In this document: positions 3,780 to 50,643 of the stretch, in pieces
How positions within the stretch are numbered: position 1 is the stretch's first letter
Layout of the letters: every line of letters starts with the position of its first letter
Program-made: the position numbers and the translations under genes
NCBI GenBank assembly: GCA_944322605.1
Contig: CALUPD010000040.1
Location: 9,833-73,832, forward strand
Length of the DNA: 64,000 bases
Origin: an uncultured Bacteroidales bacterium
GTDB taxonomy: Bacteria; Bacteroidota; Bacteroidia; Bacteroidales; UBA932
Reading direction: 5' to 3'
Notes under the pieces: generated by a model
Databases searched by the model: none
What the model was told of the DNA's origin: nothing
Seen by the model: the letters and a program-made list of their open reading frames with translations, nothing else

Positions 3780-5807
3780 TTATTTGTTGTAGTTTTCAAG
3801 TCCTGTCTTGAGGAATTCCACGAATTCCGCCACATCCAAATTATATCCTCTTCCAGGAGCAAGGTATTCGCCTGTTTCCGCGTCAAGCAGTATATAATAA
3901 GGCTGGGCATTCACGTTATAGTTCTTTTCGGAAATATACGAGTTGATTTTGCCCAATGTCTTCAAGACCCTGCCATTATCAGTCGTTATCCAGTCTTCTT
4001 TATCGACAGTCATTTTATCATCTGCATAAAGGGCCAGAACGACATAATCCTCTTTAAGCATTTTAAGCACTTGCGGGTCGGACCATACCCTTGATTCCAT
4101 TTCCCTGCAATTCGTGCATGCATGGCCGGAAAAGTCTATGAACAACGGTTTTCCTGCCTTTCTTGCAGCTTCGAGGCCCTCTTCATAATCGAAATAGCCC
4201 GGAATTCCGAGAGGCATTTTCAATTTGTCCCCGTATTTTACCTGAACCGTGTTTTCAGGCACGGCCGCAGACGCCGTTCCTCCAGACGTAAGCACGAAAT
4301 CCTGGGTTGTCATAGGAGGAAGATAGCCTGACAATGCTTTCAAAGGAGCTCCGAACATGCCCGGAATCATGTAAACCACGAACGAGAACACTATTATCGC
4401 AAGGGTAAGCCTTGTTACCGAAACATGTTCAACAGGAGAATCGTTCGCGAACTTGATTTTGCCGAGAAGGTAAAGTCCCAAAAGCGAGAATACTACAATC
4501 CAAATAGCAAGGTATACTTCCCTGTCGAGCAAGCCCCAATGGTATGTCATGTCCGCTATGTTCAGGAATTTGAATCCCAAAGCCACTTCTATGAAACCGA
4601 GGACTACCTTGACTGAATTAAGCCATCCGCCTGATTTCGGAAGGTTCTTCAAAAGCGAAGGAGCAAATGCGAATACTGTGAACGGAAGCGCAAACGCAAC
4701 CGAGAATGCAAACATCGTAATGATAGGCTCCCATATGTTTCCGCCCTGGGTAGCTTCTATGAGCACTGATCCGACGATAGGACCGGTACATGAGAACGAC
4801 ACGAGAACCAGCGTAAGGGCCATGAAGAATATACCGCCAAGACCGCCCTTATCCGATTTGGAATCCGTCTTGTTCACCCATTTGCTCGGCATCGTGATTT
4901 CGAACGCGCCGAAGAACGAAGCGGCGAATACCATGAATATTATGAAGAACAATATATTCGGAAGCCAGTGCGTTGCAAGCCAGTTGAAAATGTCCGCCGT
5001 AACGGAAGCACCGCCGGCAAAATACGTAACCAATATTATTATCGCTATAGGCAACGTGTACAACGCCACGATTGAAATGCCGAAAGCCGTAGCCATCCAC
5101 CTTCCTCTCGCCTTGGAAAATCCGTCGCTCTGGTTCTTTTTAAGGAAAAACGACACAGTCATAGGGACCATCGGGAACACGCAAGGAGTCAGCAGCATCA
5201 CGAAGCCCCACATAACGGCTTTCAGTATTATGCTCCAAAGAGACCCCGTAGGAGCAGCGACCGCATTGGCCACAGATCCCGAATCTCCTGCTGAAACAAC
5301 GCTCTCCGAAGACCCTGACACAGGGGCTACCGCAGCGAGTTTTCCTTTACCGGCAGGCAATGCCACGGAAAGTTCCTCGTCCACCATCATGCACATGCCT
5401 TCCTTGCAAACCTGACCTTCGATTATTGCCAAAATTTCCGATTCCTTGTCAGTGGTAAGCTCTATCTTCTGTCCGAAAATGATTTCATTCTCGCAATACC
5501 CGATTTCCATTTCGAACATTTCGTCATAATCACGAAGGATTTCGGTTTTGATATACGGCTTGCCGAGCAGGTTCGCCTTGCCGTCCGTCTCGAAAGTTAT
5601 CGCAGCCGGAATAGGTCCGTCAACATACGGTCCGAAATCATACATATGCCAATGAGCCTCAAGAGCCCCCTCTAGAAGAACCTCATATGTATTTCCTTCT
5701 ATATGAGACACTTTGCTACTCCATTTGATAGGCTGTTCGACCATCTGCGCGAACGCGGTCCCGCAAACCAGCGCAAACAGCGCGAATACGAGTGCTAACT
5801 TTTTCAT
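3780..5807 (-). CDS. dsbD: thiol:disulfide interchange protein, DsbD family (N-terminal domain, multi-TM core, C-terminal thioredoxin fold)
   Basis: Signal peptide, about 8 hydrophobic helices including TPCVFPMVPM and SFSCTGPIVG, and a C-terminal thioredoxin-like FIDFSGHACTNCREME CxxC motif. Confidence 0.85.
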   Translation of the reverse strand: MKKLALVFALFALVCGTAFAQMVEQPIKWSSKVSHIEGNTYEVLLEGALEAHWHMYDFGPYVDGPIPAAITFETDGKANLLGKPYIKTEILRDYDEMFEMEIGYCENEIIFGQKIELTTDKESEILAIIEGQVCKEGMCMMVDEELSVALPAGKGKLAAVAPVSGSSESVVSAGDSGSVANAVAAPTGSLWSIILKAVMWGFVMLLTPCVFPMVPMTVSFFLKKNQSDGFSKARGRWMATAFGISIVALYTLPIAIIILVTYFAGGASVTADIFNWLATHWLPNILFFIIFMVFAASFFGAFEITMPSKWVNKTDSKSDKGGLGGIFFMALTLVLVSFSCTGPIVGSVLIEATQGGNIWEPIITMFAFSVAFALPFTVFAFAPSLLKNLPKSGGWLNSVKVVLGFIEVALGFKFLNIADMTYHWGLLDREVYLAIWIVVFSLLGLYLLGKIKFANDSPVEHVSVTRLTLAIIVFSFVVYMIPGMFGAPLKALSGYLPPMTTQDFVLTSGGTASAAVPENTVQVKYGDKLKMPLGIPGYFDYEEGLEAARKAGKPLFIDFSGHACTNCREMESRVWSDPQVLKMLKEDYVVLALYADDKMTVDKEDWITTDNGRVLKTLGKINSYISEKNYNVNAQPYYILLDAETGEYLAPGRGYNLDVAEFVEFLKTGLENYNK

Positions 5808-5892: not shown

Positions 5893-6213
5893 TTATTTCT
5901 CTTTGTCCCTGCTTCCGTCGAAAAAACAGCCGAACAATCCGCGCGCCTCTTCCCAGTTTTCACGGTTTATGCAATACTTGATTTTCGGAGCCTCTATTTC
6001 TCCTTGAATAAGCCCGGCTTTCCGCAATTCCTTCAGATGCTGCGAAGCCGTGGCCTTGCATATTGGAAGTTCCTCGTGCACGTCTCCGAAACAACAATTG
6101 CTCTGCTTCTCCAAAAATTGCAGGATCGCAATACGCGCAGGATGCCCCAACGCTTTCGCATAACGCGCAAGCTTCTCTTGTTCAACCGTATAACCCTTAC
6201 CTACCATATTCAA
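5893..6213 (-). CDS. ArsR/SmtB family transcriptional regulator
   Basis: LAKALGHPARIAILQFL ... CCFGDVHEELPICKATASQHLKELRKAGLI winged-HTH signature. Confidence 0.8.
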   Translation of the reverse strand: MNMVGKGYTVEQEKLARYAKALGHPARIAILQFLEKQSNCCFGDVHEELPICKATASQHLKELRKAGLIQGEIEAPKIKYCINRENWEEARGLFGCFFDGSRDKEK

Positions 6214-6249
6214 TACGTTTTTCTGTTCGCAAATTTACAAACATTTTGT

Positions 6250-6297
6250 AAAATACCAAACGGAATATGCAGCCGTTTGCGCCCTGCATATTCCGTT
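6250..6297 (-). terminator. strong rho-independent terminator closing the lipoprotein operon
   Basis: Perfect 14-bp stem AACGGAATATGCAG/CTGCATATTCCGTT (6259-6272 / 6284-6297), followed on the minus strand by TGGTATTTT. Confidence 0.7.
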
Positions 6298-6336
6298 CAT
6301 GAAAAATCATTACAGCTTACACAAAAAAGAAACGAA

Positions 6337-7707
6337 TCAATCTATATTTATAAACCAATGCGGGAACTGCGTTCCTAATGCGGAAGTTCTGACCTTCCTG
6401 CCCTGCATTGTTTTGCCATCGCTGCTGATACGCTCGACCCACCTGTTATCGGAAATGCTTATGCCGTGCACGCGCCTCATCCATTCGGACAAGGACTCCG
6501 TTACGCCCGTATTGAAATCGCTGACAAAACCGGATGACGACAACATCGTAGGAGTAAACCCGAATACGACCGCATCGTCCGTCACGGCAGCTCCGCCGCA
6601 ATTGGCCGCGCTTTCCATATACCTGAAAATTCCAGTTTCAGTATCGACAAGAGCCGGGTAATCGACACCGTCTTTCGTATATATTGCGGTAATATACCGC
6701 CCGCTGTTGCTTATGTTCCCATAAGAAGCATGGATATATATAATCGATTTCACAGAGCCGTCGCTGCCTGCCTCGCTGTTTTCGATCCCCACGTTATGAA
6801 GTTTTTCGTCCTTGTAATATACAAGCCCGAAAGTATTCCATTCGGAACCGAATATGACAGAACCGTCGGCAGAGCACCCCCTCAAATAGACCCCGTTCCA
6901 CAAAGGATTGCCAGCTGCATCTCTTTCAGGCATATCGAGAATGACATGTTCCCCGTTGACCCATTTGCACGGCACTGCGGCATTATAGACAGAGCCGTCC
7001 TCCACGCAACCTCCTACAATCACATTGCCGTCGGCAGACATTCCGGTAATCCATGGAGAAGAATAACCGGGCCTGCATGATACCGGAGTCCTTATGCCGT
7101 CAACATACAGTTCGTTGGTCACTCCCGACTCGCTTCCGATGATCAATACACGGCCATCGTCGCTAATTGCGAACACATGATCGTATATGCCTCCTATGGA
7201 AGGAATTTCCAATTCGATCTCCCTGACCTCCCCTGTCTCGAAATCAAGCACGAAACATTCATCGTCAAAATCATTCTCGTTTATGAGAAACGTATTGACA
7301 TATGCCAGATACTTTCCGTTTTTTGAAATGGAGCCTTTTCTTGTAGGCCAAAAATCCATGAATGTCCCCCTGAACAATGCAGGCATCTGATATACGGCGA
7401 GATCCGACTTGGCAGTCCCTGCCGAGAACAGGATTTTTCCACCAAGGCTGTTTTCCGTATTATTTTCATCGACACGTATGTAAGCCGTATCTCCGGCTTT
7501 CCGTACATGGATAAAATCCTTGCTCGGCACGGCCTCCCATTCTCCGGCATTGGTTTCCACGACTACCGCGACACTGTCATCCCCGGTATAATCGAACGTA
7601 TATTCCACTACCGAAAGGTTTATATAATCCAATCCTGCCTCTTTATTGCATGACGGCAAAACGAGCAGAAGCGCCAAAATCGTTATCGCATATGTTGTAT
7701 TTTTCAT
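6337..7707 (-). CDS. surface lipoprotein, BACON-like N-terminal domain plus SxDG-repeat (beta-propeller / HAF-like) region, function unknown
   Basis: Lipobox LLVLPSC. BACON-like pattern EWEAVPSKDFIHVRKAGDTAYIRVDENNTENSLGGKILFSAGTAKSDLAVYQ. Repeated ISDDGRVLIIGS / MSADGNVIVGG / CSADGSVIFGS / ISSDGKTMQG. Confidence 0.6.
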   Translation of the reverse strand: MKNTTYAITILALLLVLPSCNKEAGLDYINLSVVEYTFDYTGDDSVAVVVETNAGEWEAVPSKDFIHVRKAGDTAYIRVDENNTENSLGGKILFSAGTAKSDLAVYQMPALFRGTFMDFWPTRKGSISKNGKYLAYVNTFLINENDFDDECFVLDFETGEVREIELEIPSIGGIYDHVFAISDDGRVLIIGSESGVTNELYVDGIRTPVSCRPGYSSPWITGMSADGNVIVGGCVEDGSVYNAAVPCKWVNGEHVILDMPERDAAGNPLWNGVYLRGCSADGSVIFGSEWNTFGLVYYKDEKLHNVGIENSEAGSDGSVKSIIYIHASYGNISNSGRYITAIYTKDGVDYPALVDTETGIFRYMESAANCGGAAVTDDAVVFGFTPTMLSSSGFVSDFNTGVTESLSEWMRRVHGISISDNRWVERISSDGKTMQGRKVRTSALGTQFPHWFINID

Positions 7708-7817: not shown

Positions 7818-9215
7818 TCATTCCGGCAATGTCCTGTATTCCACAAGAGTGGTTTTTCCCCAACCGCCTTCGCGAGGACCGTTTGCATTGAAAGGCACAG
7901 CCGCCGCATAATATCTGAAATCCGGAAGCCCTGAAGTCTCCGCCCATGTATAAGAACCGTTCCCGTAATGCAGATAACCGGTTGCATTATTCTCCGAATA
8001 ATTCGAAAGGAATGTTTCAGCAAGGAAATACTCTGACATTTCAGGATCTCTTTCTTTCAGATCATCGTACCAGTCGGCCTCGACAGTCTCATAAAAATAC
8101 CCCAAAGCGGTTTGGTCCGCAGCAATGCCGTAAACCGCGCCTCCGGAGGTTATTCCGGATATTTCAATATTTACAGGATTCGGGATTTCCAGGCCCTCAT
8201 CGAAAGAAGGCGTTGACAAAGGGAAATATTTGACCCCGGCTATTTCATCATTCTTATCATATATTGACACGTACAAATCCACAGGTTGATCATTAAGCAT
8301 GCGGCTTGTAACCATTGTCATAGAGACAGGAGTTCCGCCGTAAGACTCTAACGTATGGAAATTCGTAGTAGACCACGAATCAAGCATCAGCACAAAATCA
8401 TTATAAAAACCGGTAGGACATATCAGCTGGACCGTACCGGACTCCGAAACAGACAGAATGACCCTTCCGCACAGATCATTTGGCTCTGCCGAATAAGTTC
8501 CCTGATAAACATCTATTTCCGAAGATATGGAAACATTCGGACATTCCTCGGGAGAAAAAGTTCTTATAGGAATTTCCCATAGTCTCGTTTCAGAGCCCCT
8601 GCGATCTTCAGCCACGGCAAAAAACACGTATTCCGTTTCAGGGTCGAGATCGAAATAATTGACGCACTCGTATTCCAAAACCTCCGTGCAATAGTTCCCT
8701 TCTATCTCGCCCGAAAGGAAAGAATCGCGGTCAGATGCCTTTCCCAAATAATAACGGCATTGGTAGATTTCCTCGGTCATGGACAGCCTGAAGCCTGCTG
8801 AAACGTCCAAGACGTATTGAAGCTCCGCCTTGAACCTCGAATCAGCAGTAGAGACTTTCAAAACGCTTATCCCGCCGCTGTTTCCTTTGCGGTCATAAGA
8901 CCTTGCATAGACGGAATATATAGATACCGGATCAAGGTCGGTAAAAATCGCTTCGAGTTCCGAATTTCCATCAACGGAAAGGATACCGGACATGGTTCCG
9001 GATGAAAAAGCCTCAATGTCTTCCGGAAAGCCGATTGCATATTCAAACCTCGCCGTAGCTTCATTTGGAGAAAACAGAACTTTTACGGCAGTGCTGTCGT
9101 CATAATCCAATGCGGAAATCCCGACTTTCGCCTCAACCTGCCCCTCTTCGATTTTCTCACAACCGAACACGGCCAATGCCGACATGCATATGCATGAAAA
9201 TATGATTTTTCTCAT
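7818..9215 (-). CDS. surface lipoprotein with Fn3-like repeats, function unknown
   Basis: Signal peptide plus lipobox ALAVFGC. Repeated beta-sandwich pattern (LDPVSIYSVYARSYDRKGN, LDPETEYVFFAVAEDRRGS). Confidence 0.55.
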   Translation of the reverse strand: MRKIIFSCICMSALAVFGCEKIEEGQVEAKVGISALDYDDSTAVKVLFSPNEATARFEYAIGFPEDIEAFSSGTMSGILSVDGNSELEAIFTDLDPVSIYSVYARSYDRKGNSGGISVLKVSTADSRFKAELQYVLDVSAGFRLSMTEEIYQCRYYLGKASDRDSFLSGEIEGNYCTEVLEYECVNYFDLDPETEYVFFAVAEDRRGSETRLWEIPIRTFSPEECPNVSISSEIDVYQGTYSAEPNDLCGRVILSVSESGTVQLICPTGFYNDFVLMLDSWSTTNFHTLESYGGTPVSMTMVTSRMLNDQPVDLYVSIYDKNDEIAGVKYFPLSTPSFDEGLEIPNPVNIEISGITSGGAVYGIAADQTALGYFYETVEADWYDDLKERDPEMSEYFLAETFLSNYSENNATGYLHYGNGSYTWAETSGLPDFRYYAAAVPFNANGPREGGWGKTTLVEYRTLPE

Positions 9216-9262: not shown

Positions 9263-11548
9263 TCAGTTCCATGTCTTATCTATGGACACTTCCTTCACGG
9301 CAGACAATTTTCCGTCCTCATCATAAACAACTACTATAAGCTCAGCACTGTCCATAGAGTATATCTCATTTATGACAGCATCCGAAACATATTCCGTGTA
9401 AAATCCGTTCATGCAACCGTCTATGAATTCGCCGTTGGACAAATTCTTGTTTTCGCTGCTTCTTACGCCGACATAATATTTGGAAACATGCTCGTTAGGA
9501 ACAGCCGAAACCGATGTCACATATGCCCACCCGTTGTACTCGCACGAGAGGATTTCCACGGACACATCGGCATCAGGATTTCCATCGCATGCATAAGAAT
9601 CAGTCGTCTCATATATGATCATATGCTCGCCCGTCATCCCGTCTTCTCCGACAGGCGCAAAACCGAAAACATAGTCTTTTTCAGCGACAAGGTTTTCGAT
9701 TCTGAATTCGCCGCTATTTTCTATCCTCGAATAATTATTGATTTTAAGAGAATTAAGAAAAGCCTGCTCATCGAACCACTCATCGTACACTTGGAACTTG
9801 TATAGCATCGCCGATGCATTCTTTCCTAATGAAATATCGAAAACGGCTTCATGCAGTCCCATATCCTTCAACAGAGCCGAACCTTCCGCATCGCCGATAT
9901 CTTCCAAAGACTTGGTCCTGTAATTCAGCCATGCCGCATTTCCGAGCCTTCCGTCACTGTCTTTAGGAACTACCATAAGCGTATAGTCTTTCGATGGCGA
10001 CAAATACGAAATCACCGTATCCTTTGCCCCGCCATTGCAACTTATAGGATATGTAGTCACCGTATTTGCAGCCATCTCGTCAAATCCGGCAGAACCCTCC
10101 TCGCGGAATCCTTCCAAATTATAGACATATATGAATTTTGCATCTGCCGGAATATTCATGCCGAAGCGTATTTCGGAATATGACACGCTGTGACCGGTTA
10201 TCTCTACGGAGAAGTCCTTTTCTCCTATTACCACTTCCGGAAGGACCACGGACTGCCACACGGCCGCACCTGCGTCAAGGCTTCCGTCCTTTTTCACAGG
10301 AACGCCCCCGGCAGTATACATGCCCCCTCTTTCAAGAAAATAATCCGTAGTCCATGTCCTGAACGTAAAATTCATATTTTCGGAATATTCCTGATATTGA
10401 GGGGAACTATACCCTTGCGTGATAATTTCTTCCCAATCCCAGTCTTCCGAGGACGGATACATCATGGAAGCAGGGGCAGCCACAAAATAATATTTCGAAT
10501 ACAAATCCTTGTCAATCGACACTTCGATCGCAGCATCCGTACTGGTGACATCGGAGATTTTTATCTCAAAAGGTTTCGTCACATATTCTTCGGTAATGAA
10601 ATCTTTCGACACCGGAGCTCCTGAATAGCCTTTTGAATTGATTCCGTATGCATAGACCGAATATTCGGTCAGCGGTTCGAGCTGCGTCAAAATAAATGAC
10701 ACGGAAGATCCGTCCAATGAATGGCGGCTGTAATCCTGTTCTTCTGGAGCTGGAGCATCCTTTTCCACACAGCAATATGCATATTCGACGGCATTTTCCG
10801 CCACTATGCCGACTGTCGCCTGATTATATTCCGCATCTATGGTTTCTATCGAGATCAATGGCTCGATTTCCGTCCTGAACGTGGAAAACGCCCTTTCAGA
10901 CTCCTCGCCGCCGGAATTCACAGCCAAGGCTACTACCGTATAACTGGTATTTTCCATCAAGCCTCTTGCTTCTACTTCAGTCTCTTCCGAAGCCTCGACC
11001 GCATTATCCAACTCGATTGAACGAACATCTTCCGAACTTTCCGCAACAGCATATTTCATAGATGCCGCATTAAGCGGAGCCAATATGAATTTTACCGAAG
11101 AAGATGTCGTCTCAACAATCTCTATGTCTACTTTCGCCTGCGATGAAGTCACGGCATCGATGCTCGTTTCAGGGCCTTTTTTGCCATCCGCATTCGTAGC
11201 GTACGCCGTTATAATGTATTTCGTGTTTTCCGACAGGCCGCCTTCCGTAATTTTTATCGGACTTCCATCAATTTCCACGGAAGCATAATCTTCTGCGGCA
11301 GAACCTTGCTCGTACACGGCATATGAAACCGACACCGCGTTTTCAGCCACCGCCTCGAAGCTGATGCTCGAAGACGATGTCGCTGTCACTTTAAGGCTCA
11401 CAGTAGCTTCTTTCGCAGGAGTTTCATCCTTGCATGAGACCATGGCCAGCAATAACGCCGGCATGATTGCCAAGACGGCCATGCATCTTGCCTTGATGCA
11501 AAATAATCCATTCTTAGGTTTCATGATAATAATTTTTAGGTTTGACAT
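9263..11548 (-). CDS. large surface lipoprotein with about 7-8 Fn3-like repeats, function unknown
   Basis: Lipobox LLLAMVSC. Reiterated ~90-aa modules ending in L.ENT.Y.V.A.A.N..G. The start is taken at the ATG at 11546-11548 (MSNLKIIIMKPKNG); the ATG at 11524 (MKPKNG) is equally possible. The tracked start at 11605 lies inside the invertible segment and is rejected. Confidence 0.6.
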   Translation of the reverse strand: MSNLKIIIMKPKNGLFCIKARCMAVLAIMPALLLAMVSCKDETPAKEATVSLKVTATSSSSISFEAVAENAVSVSYAVYEQGSAAEDYASVEIDGSPIKITEGGLSENTKYIITAYATNADGKKGPETSIDAVTSSQAKVDIEIVETTSSSVKFILAPLNAASMKYAVAESSEDVRSIELDNAVEASEETEVEARGLMENTSYTVVALAVNSGGEESERAFSTFRTEIEPLISIETIDAEYNQATVGIVAENAVEYAYCCVEKDAPAPEEQDYSRHSLDGSSVSFILTQLEPLTEYSVYAYGINSKGYSGAPVSKDFITEEYVTKPFEIKISDVTSTDAAIEVSIDKDLYSKYYFVAAPASMMYPSSEDWDWEEIITQGYSSPQYQEYSENMNFTFRTWTTDYFLERGGMYTAGGVPVKKDGSLDAGAAVWQSVVLPEVVIGEKDFSVEITGHSVSYSEIRFGMNIPADAKFIYVYNLEGFREEGSAGFDEMAANTVTTYPISCNGGAKDTVISYLSPSKDYTLMVVPKDSDGRLGNAAWLNYRTKSLEDIGDAEGSALLKDMGLHEAVFDISLGKNASAMLYKFQVYDEWFDEQAFLNSLKINNYSRIENSGEFRIENLVAEKDYVFGFAPVGEDGMTGEHMIIYETTDSYACDGNPDADVSVEILSCEYNGWAYVTSVSAVPNEHVSKYYVGVRSSENKNLSNGEFIDGCMNGFYTEYVSDAVINEIYSMDSAELIVVVYDEDGKLSAVKEVSIDKTWN

Positions 11549-11550
11549 AT

Positions 11551-11579
11551 GTTCCGCCTCTTTGCAGGAGGCGGAACTG
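11551..11579. repeat. left inverted repeat (IR-L) of the candidate inverton
   Basis: GTTCCGCCTCTTTGCAGGAGGCGGAACTG, the exact reverse complement of 11779-11807. It is internally dyad-symmetric around the 7-bp TTTGCAG. Confidence 0.9.
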
Positions 11580-11778
11580 CAAATCGGACTGTCGCAATTA
11601 AACAATTATATGTCAATACATTATATCATCACGATATTATACGGTCGGATTTTCGTCTTCGAACATGCCTGGGAATCGCTTGGGATGGCAAAAGACTTGC
11701 TGTCCGGTTTGCGGCGTTTATAATTTTACTTGCAATAAATTATAACCTTGCCGTTATTTTATTATATTTGCAAGGAAA
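11580..11778 (+). promoter_or_regulatory. invertible promoter segment (199 bp), currently oriented away from the lipoprotein operon (OFF)
   Basis: Non-coding, AT-rich, bounded by 29-bp perfect inverted repeats. It holds a single TAnnTTTG box on the + strand, 9 bp from IR-R. Confidence 0.65.
11763..11770 (+). promoter_or_regulatory. Bacteroidetes -7 promoter box TATATTTG inside the invertible segment
   Basis: Exact match to the TAnnTTTG consensus. The same octamer lies upstream of rsmE (32912-32919) and of the ORF at 13508 (13439-13446). Confidence 0.55.
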
Positions 11779-11807
11779 CAGTTCCGCCTCCTGCAAAGAG
11801 GCGGAAC
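11779..11807. repeat. right inverted repeat (IR-R) of the candidate inverton
   Basis: CAGTTCCGCCTCCTGCAAAGAGGCGGAAC. With 11808-11809 it reads as 12-bp arm / 7-bp CTGCAAA spacer / 12-bp arm. Confidence 0.9.
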
Positions 11808-11937
11808 TGCTTTTATATTATATTCAATCATATGAATAACATATTGAAAGAAAAGTGCGACCTGTCGAGCTTTGCAAGAGAGGCATGGCCGCCAGGAGTC
11901 ACGGATTGCATTTGTTTTCTGGCAATAATGCGGATAA

Positions 11938-12480
11938 TCAGAGAAACCTGCCGACGCCAGACTCCAATTCCAGCAGCATTTTTTTCGCAGCAAGGCCTCC
12001 GGCATATCCGGTAAGCGAGCCGCCGCTGCCAATGACCCTGTGACAAGGAATAAAAATAGAAATAGAATTGGCTCCTACTGCATTAGCCGTAGCACGAACG
12101 GCAGAAGGAATTCCAGCCATCAGGGCAAGCTCTCCATACGAAACAGTCCTCCCATATGGTATTTCCTGTATCTTGTCCCATATTTTCCTTTGGAAACCAG
12201 TGCCTGCAAAAAGCACTGGAATGTCGAATTCCCGGCGGACACCTTTGAAATATTCGTCCAATTGCGAAAAAGCCATGCATAACGTATCGGACGGGGTGTC
12301 CGCGAATCCCGCTTCCAGGATTCTCCTCAACCGTCCGCCTATAAGGTCCATCCTTTTCCCTATAGCCCAGTCGCATAGGCAAAGCCTGCCATTAAAAGAT
12401 CCTACCATCAAATCGCCGCAAGGCGAATGGTAACGCTGCACGCAAATGACATTTCCGCTTTCCATATTATTAATAATCAA
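11938..12480 (-). CDS. ogt: methylated-DNA--protein-cysteine methyltransferase
   Basis: Active-site IPCHRVIGSGGSLTGYAGG motif. Confidence 0.9.
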   Translation of the reverse strand: MIINNMESGNVICVQRYHSPCGDLMVGSFNGRLCLCDWAIGKRMDLIGGRLRRILEAGFADTPSDTLCMAFSQLDEYFKGVRREFDIPVLFAGTGFQRKIWDKIQEIPYGRTVSYGELALMAGIPSAVRATANAVGANSISIFIPCHRVIGSGGSLTGYAGGLAAKKMLLELESGVGRFL

Positions 12481-13167
12481 TCATAAATCCGGCAGCCTTT
12501 TCTTTTCAGCCCTAGCGGGAACCCGCTTTGGAGCATAGTCCTTCATTCCTTCTACTGCGCCGCCGGCTACGGCCCAAAGATAAAGGCTCGCCACGCTGCC
12601 GAACGGAGAAAACCGCTTCCTGTATTTTTCGAAAAGTTCGCGGGTGATTCTACGGTGATGATAGACCATACGCAGCCCGCGCTGGATGCCGAGGTCGCCG
12701 TAACTCAATATGTCAGGACGTTGCATGGAAAACAGCATCAGCATCTGCGCGCTCCATACGCCTATGCCGTCTAATGAGGAAAGGTGCTTGCAGACTTGCT
12801 CGTCGCTCATCGAACCGAGAGAAGAAATATCGAATTCCCCGCTGAGGATTTTTGCAGCCGCGCCCTGGATATACGCCGCCTTCCTGTAGGATATTCCGAA
12901 CCCGCGCAGCCGGTCCGGCGAAAGAGCCGCCGCCTTTTCGGGCGTCAGCCTTCCCAACACGTCCTGCATCCGCCGCCATACCGTCTCATGAGCCTTGGTC
13001 GAAATCTGCTGCCCTACAATAGAATGCACCAAGGCCTCGAAAAGATCGGGAATGACATGCCTTTTCACGAAGCCCACACGCTCTATGACTTCCGCCATGC
13101 GCTTGTCGGCCCGTTTAAGAGCGTTTATTTCCATTTCCCCGTACTGGAAATATTCTTCCATACTCAA
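12481..13167 (-). CDS. alkA: DNA-3-methyladenine glycosylase II (HhH-GPD family)
   Basis: VGQQIS...A, LSSLDGIGVWSAQMLMLFSMQRPDILSYGDLGIQRG (HhH plus catalytic Asp). It abuts ogt with no gap. Confidence 0.85.
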   Translation of the reverse strand: MSMEEYFQYGEMEINALKRADKRMAEVIERVGFVKRHVIPDLFEALVHSIVGQQISTKAHETVWRRMQDVLGRLTPEKAAALSPDRLRGFGISYRKAAYIQGAAAKILSGEFDISSLGSMSDEQVCKHLSSLDGIGVWSAQMLMLFSMQRPDILSYGDLGIQRGLRMVYHHRRITRELFEKYRKRFSPFGSVASLYLWAVAGGAVEGMKDYAPKRVPARAEKKRLPDL

Positions 13168-13259
13168 CTGCCTTTAACCGGTAACAAAATTAGGAATTTA
13201 CCGGCAGCGCACAAAAAAAGCGTTCAAGATATTCTCTCAAACGCCTTATTTAGAACTTG

Positions 13260-13333
13260 TAGCGCGAGGCGGGCTTGAACCGCCGACCTCATGATTATGA
13301 ATCATGCGCTCTAACCAGCTGAGCTACCGCGCC
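13260..13333 (-). tRNA. tRNA with CAU anticodon (elongator Met, or Ile2 if lysidine-modified)
   Basis: I folded the reverse complement by hand as GGCGCGG-TA-GCTC-AGCTGGTTA-GAGC-G-CATGA-TTCATAA-TCATG-AGGTC-GGCGG-TTCAAGC-CCGCC-TCGCGCT-A, a 74-nt cloverleaf. The anticodon stem lacks the three G-C pairs typical of initiator tRNA. No encoded CCA. Confidence 0.85.
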
Positions 13334-49552: not shown

Positions 49553-49600
49553 AACGGGTTGCACCGAAAGCCCCATGCGGTTTCGTGTGCAACCCGTTTT
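49553..49600 (+). terminator. rho-independent terminator after pgk
   Basis: 12-bp stem AACGGGTTGCAC/GTGCAACCCGTT followed by TT. Confidence 0.6.
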
Positions 49601-49704: not shown

Positions 49705-50643
49705 ATGAAAAAATCAATTCTTCTATTAGGATTGGCTGCCTTGACAGCAATTTCTTTCACATCCTGCGAGAAAGAAAACAAGCCGGTAACTCCTGAAATC
49801 CTTGCGACTCCTGTCGTGACTTACGAAATCACAGACGAGACGACATTGACATTCTCATGGTCGCCTGTAGAAAATGCGACAGGCTATATCTACGAATACG
49901 ACAAGGTACAGCACGAAATCGCAGAAACATCGTTCTCCCTTACCGACCTGAAGCCTGGAACATATGAAGTACGCGTAAAAGCCATAGGCGAGAACAATGC
50001 GCAGTCCAATTGGGGCGATGCAAAAGGCGGACTTGTAAAGCCGGAAGTCCTCAAATGGCTCGGGACCTACACTGTAAAATCTTCCCAGACATTGTCATGG
50101 ACTATAAATTCAGATAATACTACCACGATGAACCTTGAAGACAATCCTATGGATCTTACTCTTGAAGTAGCAGCAAACACCGTTGACCTCGACTACGTGT
50201 TCATCTACGGATTCAGCGGAATCGATCCTAATGTTTATCTGCAAGCAGAAGTAGACGAAAACAGCATTTCTCTGATGGGCGGGGTAGCGGTAAGCGACCA
50301 GGCACAGAACGGATACTATCCTACATGGCTTAACTGGGGACATATCAGGAACCTCACCACAGGAGAAGAATACGACTCGCCATTCGGCGGAGAATTCGCC
50401 GCTTATGTATGGACAATGGGCGAAGACGGCTCGATAACCAGCCGCAACACCGAGAATACTGTCAGCACGAACCCTGACGAATATTACACAATATTCCACC
50501 TCGGATTATACAATTTCAATCCTAACGCCGGGTCTTTCGCGATATTTGAAGAAAGCGTGAATCCGAGCCCTGCCGGAACTCTTTCCGACTTCGTAAAGAC
50601 CAGCACGGACGAAAATGTAGCTGATTACATATTCACTGAATAA
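49705..50643 (+). CDS. lipoprotein with an N-terminal Fn3 domain, hypothetical
   Basis: Lipobox ISFTSC. Canonical Fn3 stretch TLTFSWSPVENATGYIYEY...LKPGTYEVRVKAIG. Confidence 0.55.
   Translation: MKKSILLLGLAALTAISFTSCEKENKPVTPEILATPVVTYEITDETTLTFSWSPVENATGYIYEYDKVQHEIAETSFSLTDLKPGTYEVRVKAIGENNAQSNWGDAKGGLVKPEVLKWLGTYTVKSSQTLSWTINSDNTTTMNLEDNPMDLTLEVAANTVDLDYVFIYGFSGIDPNVYLQAEVDENSISLMGGVAVSDQAQNGYYPTWLNWGHIRNLTTGEEYDSPFGGEFAAYVWTMGEDGSITSRNTENTVSTNPDEYYTIFHLGLYNFNPNAGSFAIFEESVNPSPAGTLSDFVKTSTDENVADYIFTE

Follow-up and report, generated by a model that had tools for sequence, protein, structure and literature searches.

A candidate invertible promoter, seen in an OFF-like orientation, upstream of a three-lipoprotein operon in an uncultured Bacteroidales bacterium

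The intergenic region between ogt and a three-gene lipoprotein operon in an uncultured Bacteroidales bacterium raises the question of whether a short DNA segment, framed by two inverted hairpin sequences, is a promoter that can be turned around or a fixed arrangement of ordinary signals. The region lies in a stretch of 64,000 nucleotides (contig CALUPD010000040.1, positions 9,833 to 73,832), denoted here as the window. The element spans 11551-11807 (257 bp) and consists of a left inverted repeat (IR-L), a segment of 199 nt and a right inverted repeat (IR-R). Read along the minus strand, the order is HhH-GPD glycosylase, ogt, 130 nt, IR-R, the 199-nt segment, IR-L, three lipoprotein genes and a terminator. 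The element appears to be an invertible promoter (inverton) in its OFF orientation, served by a distant recombinase; we put the probability of this reading at about 0.55.

The two inverted repeats (IRs) form a perfect 29-nt pair, with arms at 11551-11579 and 11779-11807 that are 100% complementary and 199 nt apart. Each copy is itself palindromic, with 10-bp arms GTTCCGCCTC/GAGGCGGAAC on either side of a 7-nt spacer; in IR-R the palindrome reaches arms of 12 bp (11779-11809), and the general layout of a copy is 10-12 bp, 7 nt and 10-12 bp. IR-L, in the 5' leader of the first lipoprotein gene, reads GTTCCGCCTC / TTTGCAG / GAGGCGGAAC(TG) (11551-11579) and gives a hairpin of -21 kcal/mol. IR-R reads CAGTTCCGCCTC / CTGCAAA / GAGGCGGAACTG (11779-11809, the repeat proper being 11779-11807) and folds as a hairpin with a 12-bp stem, at -23.7 kcal/mol on the plus strand and -27.6 on the minus strand, so that the two hairpins together cover a range of -21 to -28 kcal/mol. 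The spacers are exact reverse complements, matching at 7/7 positions in the inverted register and at 2/7 in the direct register, and the copies as a whole are identical at 29/29 positions as an inverted pair and at 25/30 as a direct pair. Since the spacers match only in the inverted register, the copies are truly inverted, not direct. The initial annotation had described an inverted repeat made of dyad-symmetric copies, with 7-bp cores in inverted orientation, and this description holds.

The pair is the only one of its kind in the window. The pattern GTTCCGCCTC-N7-GAGGCGGAAC occurs twice in the 64 kb, against an expectation of 0.00, and no rival inverted repeat of comparable quality was found within 1.5 kb spacing across the window. 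The candidate invertible segment (11580-11778) is AT-rich and non-coding, with a GC content of 0.36, the window as a whole having 0.49 and the IRs 0.62. A 96-residue open reading frame (ORF) called across the element belongs to no family and is confined, among the contigs that carry it, to a single genomic context; it is spurious. The peptide SSASCKEAE, which had been reported to be shared by two ORFs on opposite strands, is indeed present in both.

The repeats were also compared among the four haplotypes represented by the contigs described below. The repeat length of 29 nt, as first annotated, is correct for the window; the three other haplotypes have an A at 11578, which reduces the conserved IR to the 10-7-10 hairpin of 27 nt. 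One strain has a T at 11572, and both positions lie in IR-L, which is variable at these two positions, with IR-R invariant in 4/4 haplotypes. The 10-7-10 geometry, an internal palindrome with an asymmetric 7-nt spacer, is kept in all of them. The interior of the segment (11580-11778) has 10 variable positions among the four haplotypes, beside one insertion. In one strain (L038:161-454), 6 nt are inserted inside the segment, at window position 11635, as a duplication of ATTATA.

The segment contains one perfect Bacteroidetes -7 box, TATATTTG at 11763-11770 on the plus strand, in agreement with the initial annotation, which had counted exactly one. This consensus match is retained in 4/4 haplotypes, stands 8 nt upstream of the IR-R hairpin and points away from the lipoprotein operon. 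Intergenic DNA of the window holds 26 perfect TAnnTTTG boxes; a crude gene model scores 20 of these as productive, and another three stand before genes that it overlooked, which places about 23 of the 26 upstream of a gene on the same strand. The box at 11763 is among the few orphans: the nearest downstream gene on the plus strand is 2.2 kb away, and a terminator-like hairpin follows after 8 nt. The identical 8-mer stands before several real genes in the window. Judged from the sequence, the segment appears to carry a promoter that points out through IR-R, and an orphan box parked against a terminator-like hairpin, where about 23 of 26 boxes are productive, supports the invertible-promoter reading.

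On the operon's own (minus) strand, no perfect -7 box that would serve the three lipoprotein genes was found. A box with one mismatch, TATAATTG (minus strand, running from 11610 to 11603), points to the lipoprotein gene in the present orientation and is kept in all haplotypes. There is a second perfect box on the plus strand, TAGGTTTG at 11537-11544, 6 nt before IR-L. Together with IR-L it mirrors the box-plus-hairpin layout seen at IR-R. The TAGGTTTG box is the reverse complement of an AAACCTA motif that is duplicated in the leader and start of the lipoprotein gene (11510-11521 and 11532-11543), and because of this origin it is probably incidental.

The two hairpins differ in their surroundings. 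IR-R, with 12 pairs, 8 of them GC pairs, and a loop of 7, is followed on the plus strand by the T-rich tail CTTTTATATT (11810-11819), with which it scores as an intrinsic terminator and as the top-scoring terminator-like site of the region. This tail lies in the outer flank and would stay fixed on inversion. On the minus strand the hairpin is followed by TTTCCTTGC (11770-11778), inside the segment, which may act as a weaker U-tract for ogt transcripts; flipping the segment in silico replaces this tail by CAAATCGG. The full contexts are GGAAACAG[hairpin]CTGCTTTTATATT on the plus strand and AAAAGCAG[hairpin]CTGTTTCCTT on the minus strand. A GC-rich stem with an immediate U-tract, as expected of an intrinsic terminator, is thus present on the plus strand and borderline on the minus strand (UGUUUCCUU). 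The A- and T-tracts on both sides give IR-R the look of a bidirectional terminator, placed 130 nt past the ogt stop codon. No U-tract follows IR-L on either strand, and by inference the same hairpin would terminate transcription at the right end and be read through at the left. The terminator look of IR-R, which the initial annotation had missed, accounts in part for one of the two copies without any switching.

A structured or small RNA was considered as well and is without support. No match at the gathering score of Rfam 15 was found near the element, the best local match reaching 23 bits against a threshold of 60, and the only sequence that passes is a tRNA at 13260-13333. The interior of the element folds with z-scores, relative to shuffled sequences, of -2.1 on the plus strand and -0.2 on the minus strand, which are unconvincing.

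It is proposed that each of the two sites, of 27-29 nt, is a recombination core of the tyrosine-recombinase type, in which inverted arms of 10-12 bp would be bound by the enzyme and the asymmetric 7-nt spacer would be the place of crossover. Because the spacers are in opposite orientation, the expected outcome of recombination is inversion, and not excision, of the 199-nt segment. With the segment in the OFF orientation, the TATATTTG promoter would fire rightward, with transcription starting 2-3 nt before the IR-R hairpin, and IR-R with its fixed T-tract would terminate the transcript; IR-R would also stop read-through from ogt, and the three-lipoprotein operon would be left with no canonical promoter. 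Inversion to the ON orientation would rebuild the promoter-plus-hairpin junction at IR-L. In the in-silico inverted sequence the box stands about 71 nt before the ATG at 11524, the range for other genes being -25 to -88. As no U-tract follows the hairpin at IR-L, transcription would run on through the leader and into the lipoprotein genes. The recombinase would have to act in trans, from a gene at another place in the genome. Surface lipoproteins are a class of genes that is usually phase-varied in Bacteroidales.

A further step, which we regard as tentative and rather unlikely in its entirety, is that the sites are dual-purpose, serving as recombinase core in the DNA and as a 27-31-nt hairpin in the RNA whose effect is set by the fixed outer flank. 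The hairpin would then be a terminator at the right end, where the U-tract is, and at the left end a 5' stem that is harmless or stabilising. A single inversion would shift the promoter, turn a terminating junction into a read-through one and remove the U-tract by which transcripts from ogt are stopped. With a recombinase encoded far away, such sites would make up a new IR class of orphan invertons in this uncultured Bacteroidales lineage.

The flipped orientation was searched for in contigs retrieved by exact-protein look-ups with ogt, the 96-residue ORF and its variants, the lipoprotein and the DsbD-like gene. The organism is present in ERR10610448, ERR4096629, SRR34436950 and the runs behind ERZ28614132, ERZ28613100, ERZ28614128, ERZ28620162, ERZ24773544/45/47, ERZ16268037/40/153 and ERZ17292901/05; a search for the environment of the samples returned nothing. 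Its junctions are, in short form, the outer-left flank, IR-L and TTTCCTTGCAAATAT on one side and …GTCCGATTTG, IR-R and the outer-right flank on the other; in full they read …TTTGACATAT-GTTCCGCCTCTTTGCAGGAGGCGGAACTG-TTTCCTTGCAAATATAATAAAATAACGG (left) and …TTAATTGCGACAGTCCGATTTG-CAGTTCCGCCTCCTGCAAAGAGGCGGAAC-TGCTTTTATATT (right). Four further contigs stop within the element or at its rim, at 11810 (L018), 11779 (L012), 11581 (L016) and 11551 (L017), each no more than 3 nt from an IR or hairpin boundary; L012, a scaffold of 55 kb from ERZ28614132, stops exactly at the inner edge of IR-R, and L017, a Logan contig (k=31), exactly at the outer edge of IR-L. These ends are suggestive, and only suggestive, of branching of the assembly graph caused by mixed orientations. 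Two Logan contigs, L014 and L017, also begin at the same position inside tRNA-Met, which indicates that these assemblies break at repeats.

Several observations weigh against an active switch. All 13 independent, metagenomic contigs across the element, from 13 samples and four haplotypes that have diverged by no more than about 3%, show the native orientation (13/13) and none is flipped, the contigs being consensus assemblies only; two partial contigs are native at the junction that they cover. In the in-silico flip the frame of the 96-residue ORF runs open into the lipoprotein gene, and the chimeric protein expected from a flipped contig was not found, in a search that also missed known native proteins and is a weak test. 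As to the contig ends, a 29-nt repeat at low coverage and with a small k could also end contigs at the IRs, and the Logan contig L017 crosses IR-R unbroken. In 48 ORFs of the window, no Phage_integrase, Resolvase or related domain was detected. The absence of a recombinase gene nearby, to which the initial annotation had drawn attention, extends through the called genes to about 6 kb past the left edge of the window, and altogether over about 18 kb to the left and 52 kb to the right of the element; no invertase adjoins the element, which has ogt, HhH-GPD, tRNA-Met and mutL to one side and the operon with the ArsR-like and DsbD-like genes to the other. An invertase gene is usually found beside invertons whose IRs are palindromic (PMC12118408). 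The site sequence is not among the published motifs and is absent from two small supplementary files of one inverton census, and no IR pair was found upstream of the homologous operons of other species, which have AraC/TPR regulators or a plain terminator and promoter region there. Lastly, IR-R taken alone is adequately explained as a terminator, and the one-mismatch box TATAATTG could drive the operon with no inversion.

Consensus assemblies are blind to minor orientations below about 10-50%, and in one census the minor orientation made up less than 1% in 1011 of 1837 verified invertons (PMC11892184); a uniform consensus orientation is therefore expected and is not a refutation. The proposal that the segment is invertible, as made in the initial annotation, stands in so far as the anatomy fits an OFF-state invertible promoter; of the two orientations, the assemblies show only the native one.

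The main alternative, possible if on balance doubtful, is an arrangement that does not switch at present. IR-R would be a bidirectional terminator closing the HhH-GPD/ogt unit, the segment an ordinary promoter region in which the weak TATAATTG drives the operon, and IR-L a fossil or duplicated inverted copy of that terminator hairpin, now acting as a leader stem; in a variant, the element could be a dead inverton that has lost its recombinase, or a one-off inverted duplication. The terminator score of IR-R and its A- and T-tracts on both sides agree with this, as do the single orientation of 13/13 assemblies and the lack of a recombinase in the surveyed neighbourhood. The inner arm of IR-L has drifted by 1-2 substitutions in other strains and IR-R has not, as if only IR-R were constrained. 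A related operon (contig L041) has exactly such a layout, in which an upstream operon is followed by one strong terminator hairpin, a promoter region of about 220 nt and the gene, with no second hairpin. It is this second, inverted copy that is the special feature of the present locus, and a static arrangement leaves it without a reason: a hairpin 199 nt off, in the leader, with its loop exactly reverse-complemented. It also has TATATTTG firing into a terminator 8 nt on, with no gene to serve, when nearly all other boxes in the window are productive; it requires a non-canonical box for a three-gene operon; and it leaves the contig ends that fall exactly at the IR boundaries unexplained.

Terminal inverted repeats around a short, non-coding and AT-rich body of 257 bp, missing upstream of the homologous operons in other species, would also suit a non-autonomous mobile element or its remnant, such as a miniature inverted-repeat transposable element (MITE), a REPIN or a PATE-like element, inserted between ogt and the lipoprotein gene with the 27-29-nt hairpins as its ends. 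Doublets of repetitive extragenic palindromes (REPs) in other bacteria are inverted palindrome pairs. Such an origin is nevertheless improbable. The element is present as a single copy in the 64 kb and in one genomic context among contigs with the 96-residue ORF; no target-site duplication is visible, as the flanks …GACATAT and TGCTTTT have no direct repeat in common, and a multi-copy MITE was rejected on these grounds. No transposase or RAYT-like gene is present in the window. A scan for the site pattern in one genome for each of 185,579 species returned 8 exact matches, and the JGI metagenome collection 7; all 15 are single hairpins in unrelated high-GC organisms, with other loops, and no related copies were found in the genome or metagenome collections. 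The possibility, raised with the initial annotation, that the hairpin is a solitary REP or terminator element scattered through genomes was not borne out, the hairpins being a unique pair in the window and no dispersed family being seen. More improbable still is a non-coding RNA of about 260 nt on the plus strand, which would be transcribed from the TAGGTTTG box, start at IR-L and end at IR-R, be antisense to the lipoprotein 5' leader and have ends that pair over 29 nt. The perfect -7 box 6 nt upstream of IR-L, the quality of IR-R as a plus-strand terminator and the slightly better-than-shuffled folding of the plus-strand interior (z = -2.1) are in its favour. Yet no Rfam match comes near any gathering score, the structure signal is weak and the haplotype substitutions are scattered; the 11537 box is probably an incidental product of the duplicated AAACCTA, and the box at 11763 is left unexplained.

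The gene that an invertible promoter would control is the one adjacent gene whose 5' end is directed towards the element, namely the first of the three-lipoprotein operon. Its product is a lipoprotein of 753 residues (9263-11524, minus strand; 761 residues from the alternative start at 11548), in which the cysteine is followed by KDE. A structural model (predicted local distance difference test score, pLDDT, 85.6) shows a chain of about eight fn3-like β-sandwich domains. The start common to the homologs is MKPKN at 11524, not 11548, which puts IR-L 26 nt away from the start codon, within the 5' leader. The initial annotation had IR-L abutting the first ATG of a gene at 9263-11548; IR-L is directly upstream, as stated, and with the conserved start it is 26 nt off, in the leader. 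The second gene (7818-9215, minus strand) encodes a lipoprotein of 465 residues (…VFGC-EKIEE) and the third (6337-7707, minus strand) one of 456 residues (…LPSC-NKEAG). Neither belongs to a known family, and they are the second and third genes in the homologous operons too. In all three products a lipoprotein signal peptide is present and the cysteine is followed by acidic residues (C-KDE, C-EKIEE and C-NKEAG). The operon is closed, after gene 3, by a terminator hairpin with a 15-bp stem and UGGUAUUUU (6249-6298, minus strand).

The operon family is small and known from metagenomes alone; a search with the first gene product returned only 13 metagenome proteins. In two other species (L026:952-2887 and L029:727-2511), a gene for a regulator with tetratricopeptide repeats (TPR) and an AraC-type helix-turn-helix (HTH) domain adjoins the homologous three-lipoprotein operon. 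With such a regulator there and a candidate DNA switch here, regulation of the operon would differ between lineages. A homologous operon with 40% identity (P0004, 770 residues) is represented by five contigs, and five of the five start 50-100 nt upstream of the gene (for example L030:1-100, L031:1-97 and L032:1-53), so some upstream feature breaks the assemblies there as well. One of these contigs shares its sample (ERZ24773545) with a contig of the window organism, at a coverage of 4.3x compared with 3.7x; given the shared sample and similar coverage, it could be a paralogous operon of the same genome. In scaffold_594 of ERZ16268040 (L011:3984-6147), a 56-nt deletion (window positions of about 10849-10904) splits the lipoprotein gene into ORFs of 200 and 513 residues, and the gene is thus pseudogenised in that population; the inverton region of the scaffold is identical to that of the window.

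The remaining neighbours are on the minus strand. Upstream of the element, ogt (6-O-methylguanine DNA methyltransferase; 11938-12465) is the last gene of its unit, with its stop codon 130 nt before IR-R, and is preceded by the HhH-GPD glycosylase gene (12481-13167); tRNA-Met (CAT; 13259-13333) is located between mutL and this unit. After the operon there is an ArsR/SmtB-type HTH gene of 104 residues (5893-6213) and a gene for a DsbD-like thiol:disulfide interchange protein (3780-5807), which has a TATATTTG box of its own about 42-49 nt upstream of its start. Both of these genes are outside the regulon of the candidate switch. Elsewhere in the window, pgk is closely followed by an imperfect palindrome of 23 nt whose arms abut (49553-49598), and the next gene encodes an fn3-domain protein of 312 residues (49705-50643, plus strand).

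If inversion takes place, the element would represent a new IR sequence class for Bacteroidales invertons, with arms of 10-12 bp, the usual 7-nt spacer and no cognate invertase nearby, and an uncharacterised, metagenome-only three-lipoprotein operon would be phase-variable. It would also exemplify cleanly how a recombination site can serve, depending on context, as a terminator hairpin, and could help both the design of inverton predictors, by which hairpin-like IRs tend to be discarded, and the building of compact synthetic switches. Should inversion fail to be confirmed, the locus would instead warn that a terminator hairpin and its inverted twin can mimic an inverton.

Among known systems, the S-layer invertible promoter of Bacteroides thetaiotaomicron (BT1927) and B. 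fragilis (BF4087), with recombinases of the Tsr26 type (tyrosine recombinases), is a close precedent (Taketani 2015, PMC4611039, where Weinacht 2004 is cited for it). The BT1927 switch measures 256 bp and has 22-bp IRs with GTTAC-N7-GTAAC, and its inversion by tyrosine recombinases has been verified; the ON form made up 0.15-0.25% of cultured cells and 8% of reads in one gut sample, and the B. fragilis switch was ON in 0.008% of amplicon reads (PMC4611039). The element presented here is similar in size (257 bp), in its IRs of 20-30 nt that are internally palindromic around a 7-nt spacer, in carrying a promoter and in its position directly upstream of a surface-protein gene. The BT1927 switch is predominantly OFF, and the present element is seen OFF-like. 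The arms are GTTCCGCCTC/GAGGCGGAAC here and (CC)GTTAC/GTAAC(GG) there, with lengths of 10-12 bp and 5-7 bp respectively, and only here do they form a terminator-like hairpin of -21 to -28 kcal/mol. Two recombinase genes adjoin the BT1927 switch and none is near the present element, the regulated proteins are not detectably related, and inversion was demonstrated there and not here.

The capsular polysaccharide (CPS) invertons of Bacteroides and Parabacteroides have IRs with GTTAC-N7-GTAAC or GCTAC-N7-GTAGC and an adjacent DNA invertase of the tyrosine type (PMC12118408). They have in common with the present element the internal palindrome and the 7-nt spacer; their promoter segment is 180-290 bp long and the transcript exits through one IR. 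The IR motif differs, and here there is no UpxY/UpxZ or polysaccharide gene and no adjacent invertase; CPS invertons number 4-8 loci per genome, compared with a single site pair here (64 kb checked). Around its spacer the present site reads GCCTC | N7 | GAGGC, with GTTCC/GGAAC 17 nt apart, which is not the motif of the Tsr class. Since geometry, size and kind of target are shared and the motif and the adjacent invertase are not, the element appears, from its sequence, to work like a Tsr-type inverton but to fall outside that IR class. Palindromic IRs with a 7-nt spacer, of the GTTAC-N7-GTAAC or GCTAC-N7-GTAGC form, are a documented hallmark of Bacteroidales tyrosine-invertase invertons (PMC4611039, PMC12118408), and the self-palindromic, lox-like site is not the unusual point that the initial annotation had taken it to be.

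For an inverton that has no invertase gene of its own, the polysaccharide promoter inversions of B. fragilis that depend on Mpi, reportedly described in Coyne 2003 (cited in PMC4611039), are a precedent. Mpi acts in trans on many distant invertons that lack an invertase gene of their own; it is a serine invertase, and its short IRs are not known to be 12-7-12 palindromes. The loxP and FRT sites of Cre and Flp also have inverted arms around an asymmetric spacer that gives direction, and opposite sites lead to inversion. As sites of phage P1 and the yeast 2-micron plasmid, with a 13-8-13 layout and no sequence in common with the present site, they resemble it in design only. A bidirectional intrinsic terminator resembles IR-R in the 12-bp stem with 8 GC pairs, the A- and T-tracts on both strands and the position 130 nt past ogt, but terminators need no second inverted copy, and IR-L, in a 5' leader, has no U-tract. 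The Tsr sites of Bacteroidales come much nearer to the present site than loxP or FRT do. The palindromic site design is thus already known, and what is new in the element is the sequence and length of its arms, its orphan status and the terminator-like IR-R.

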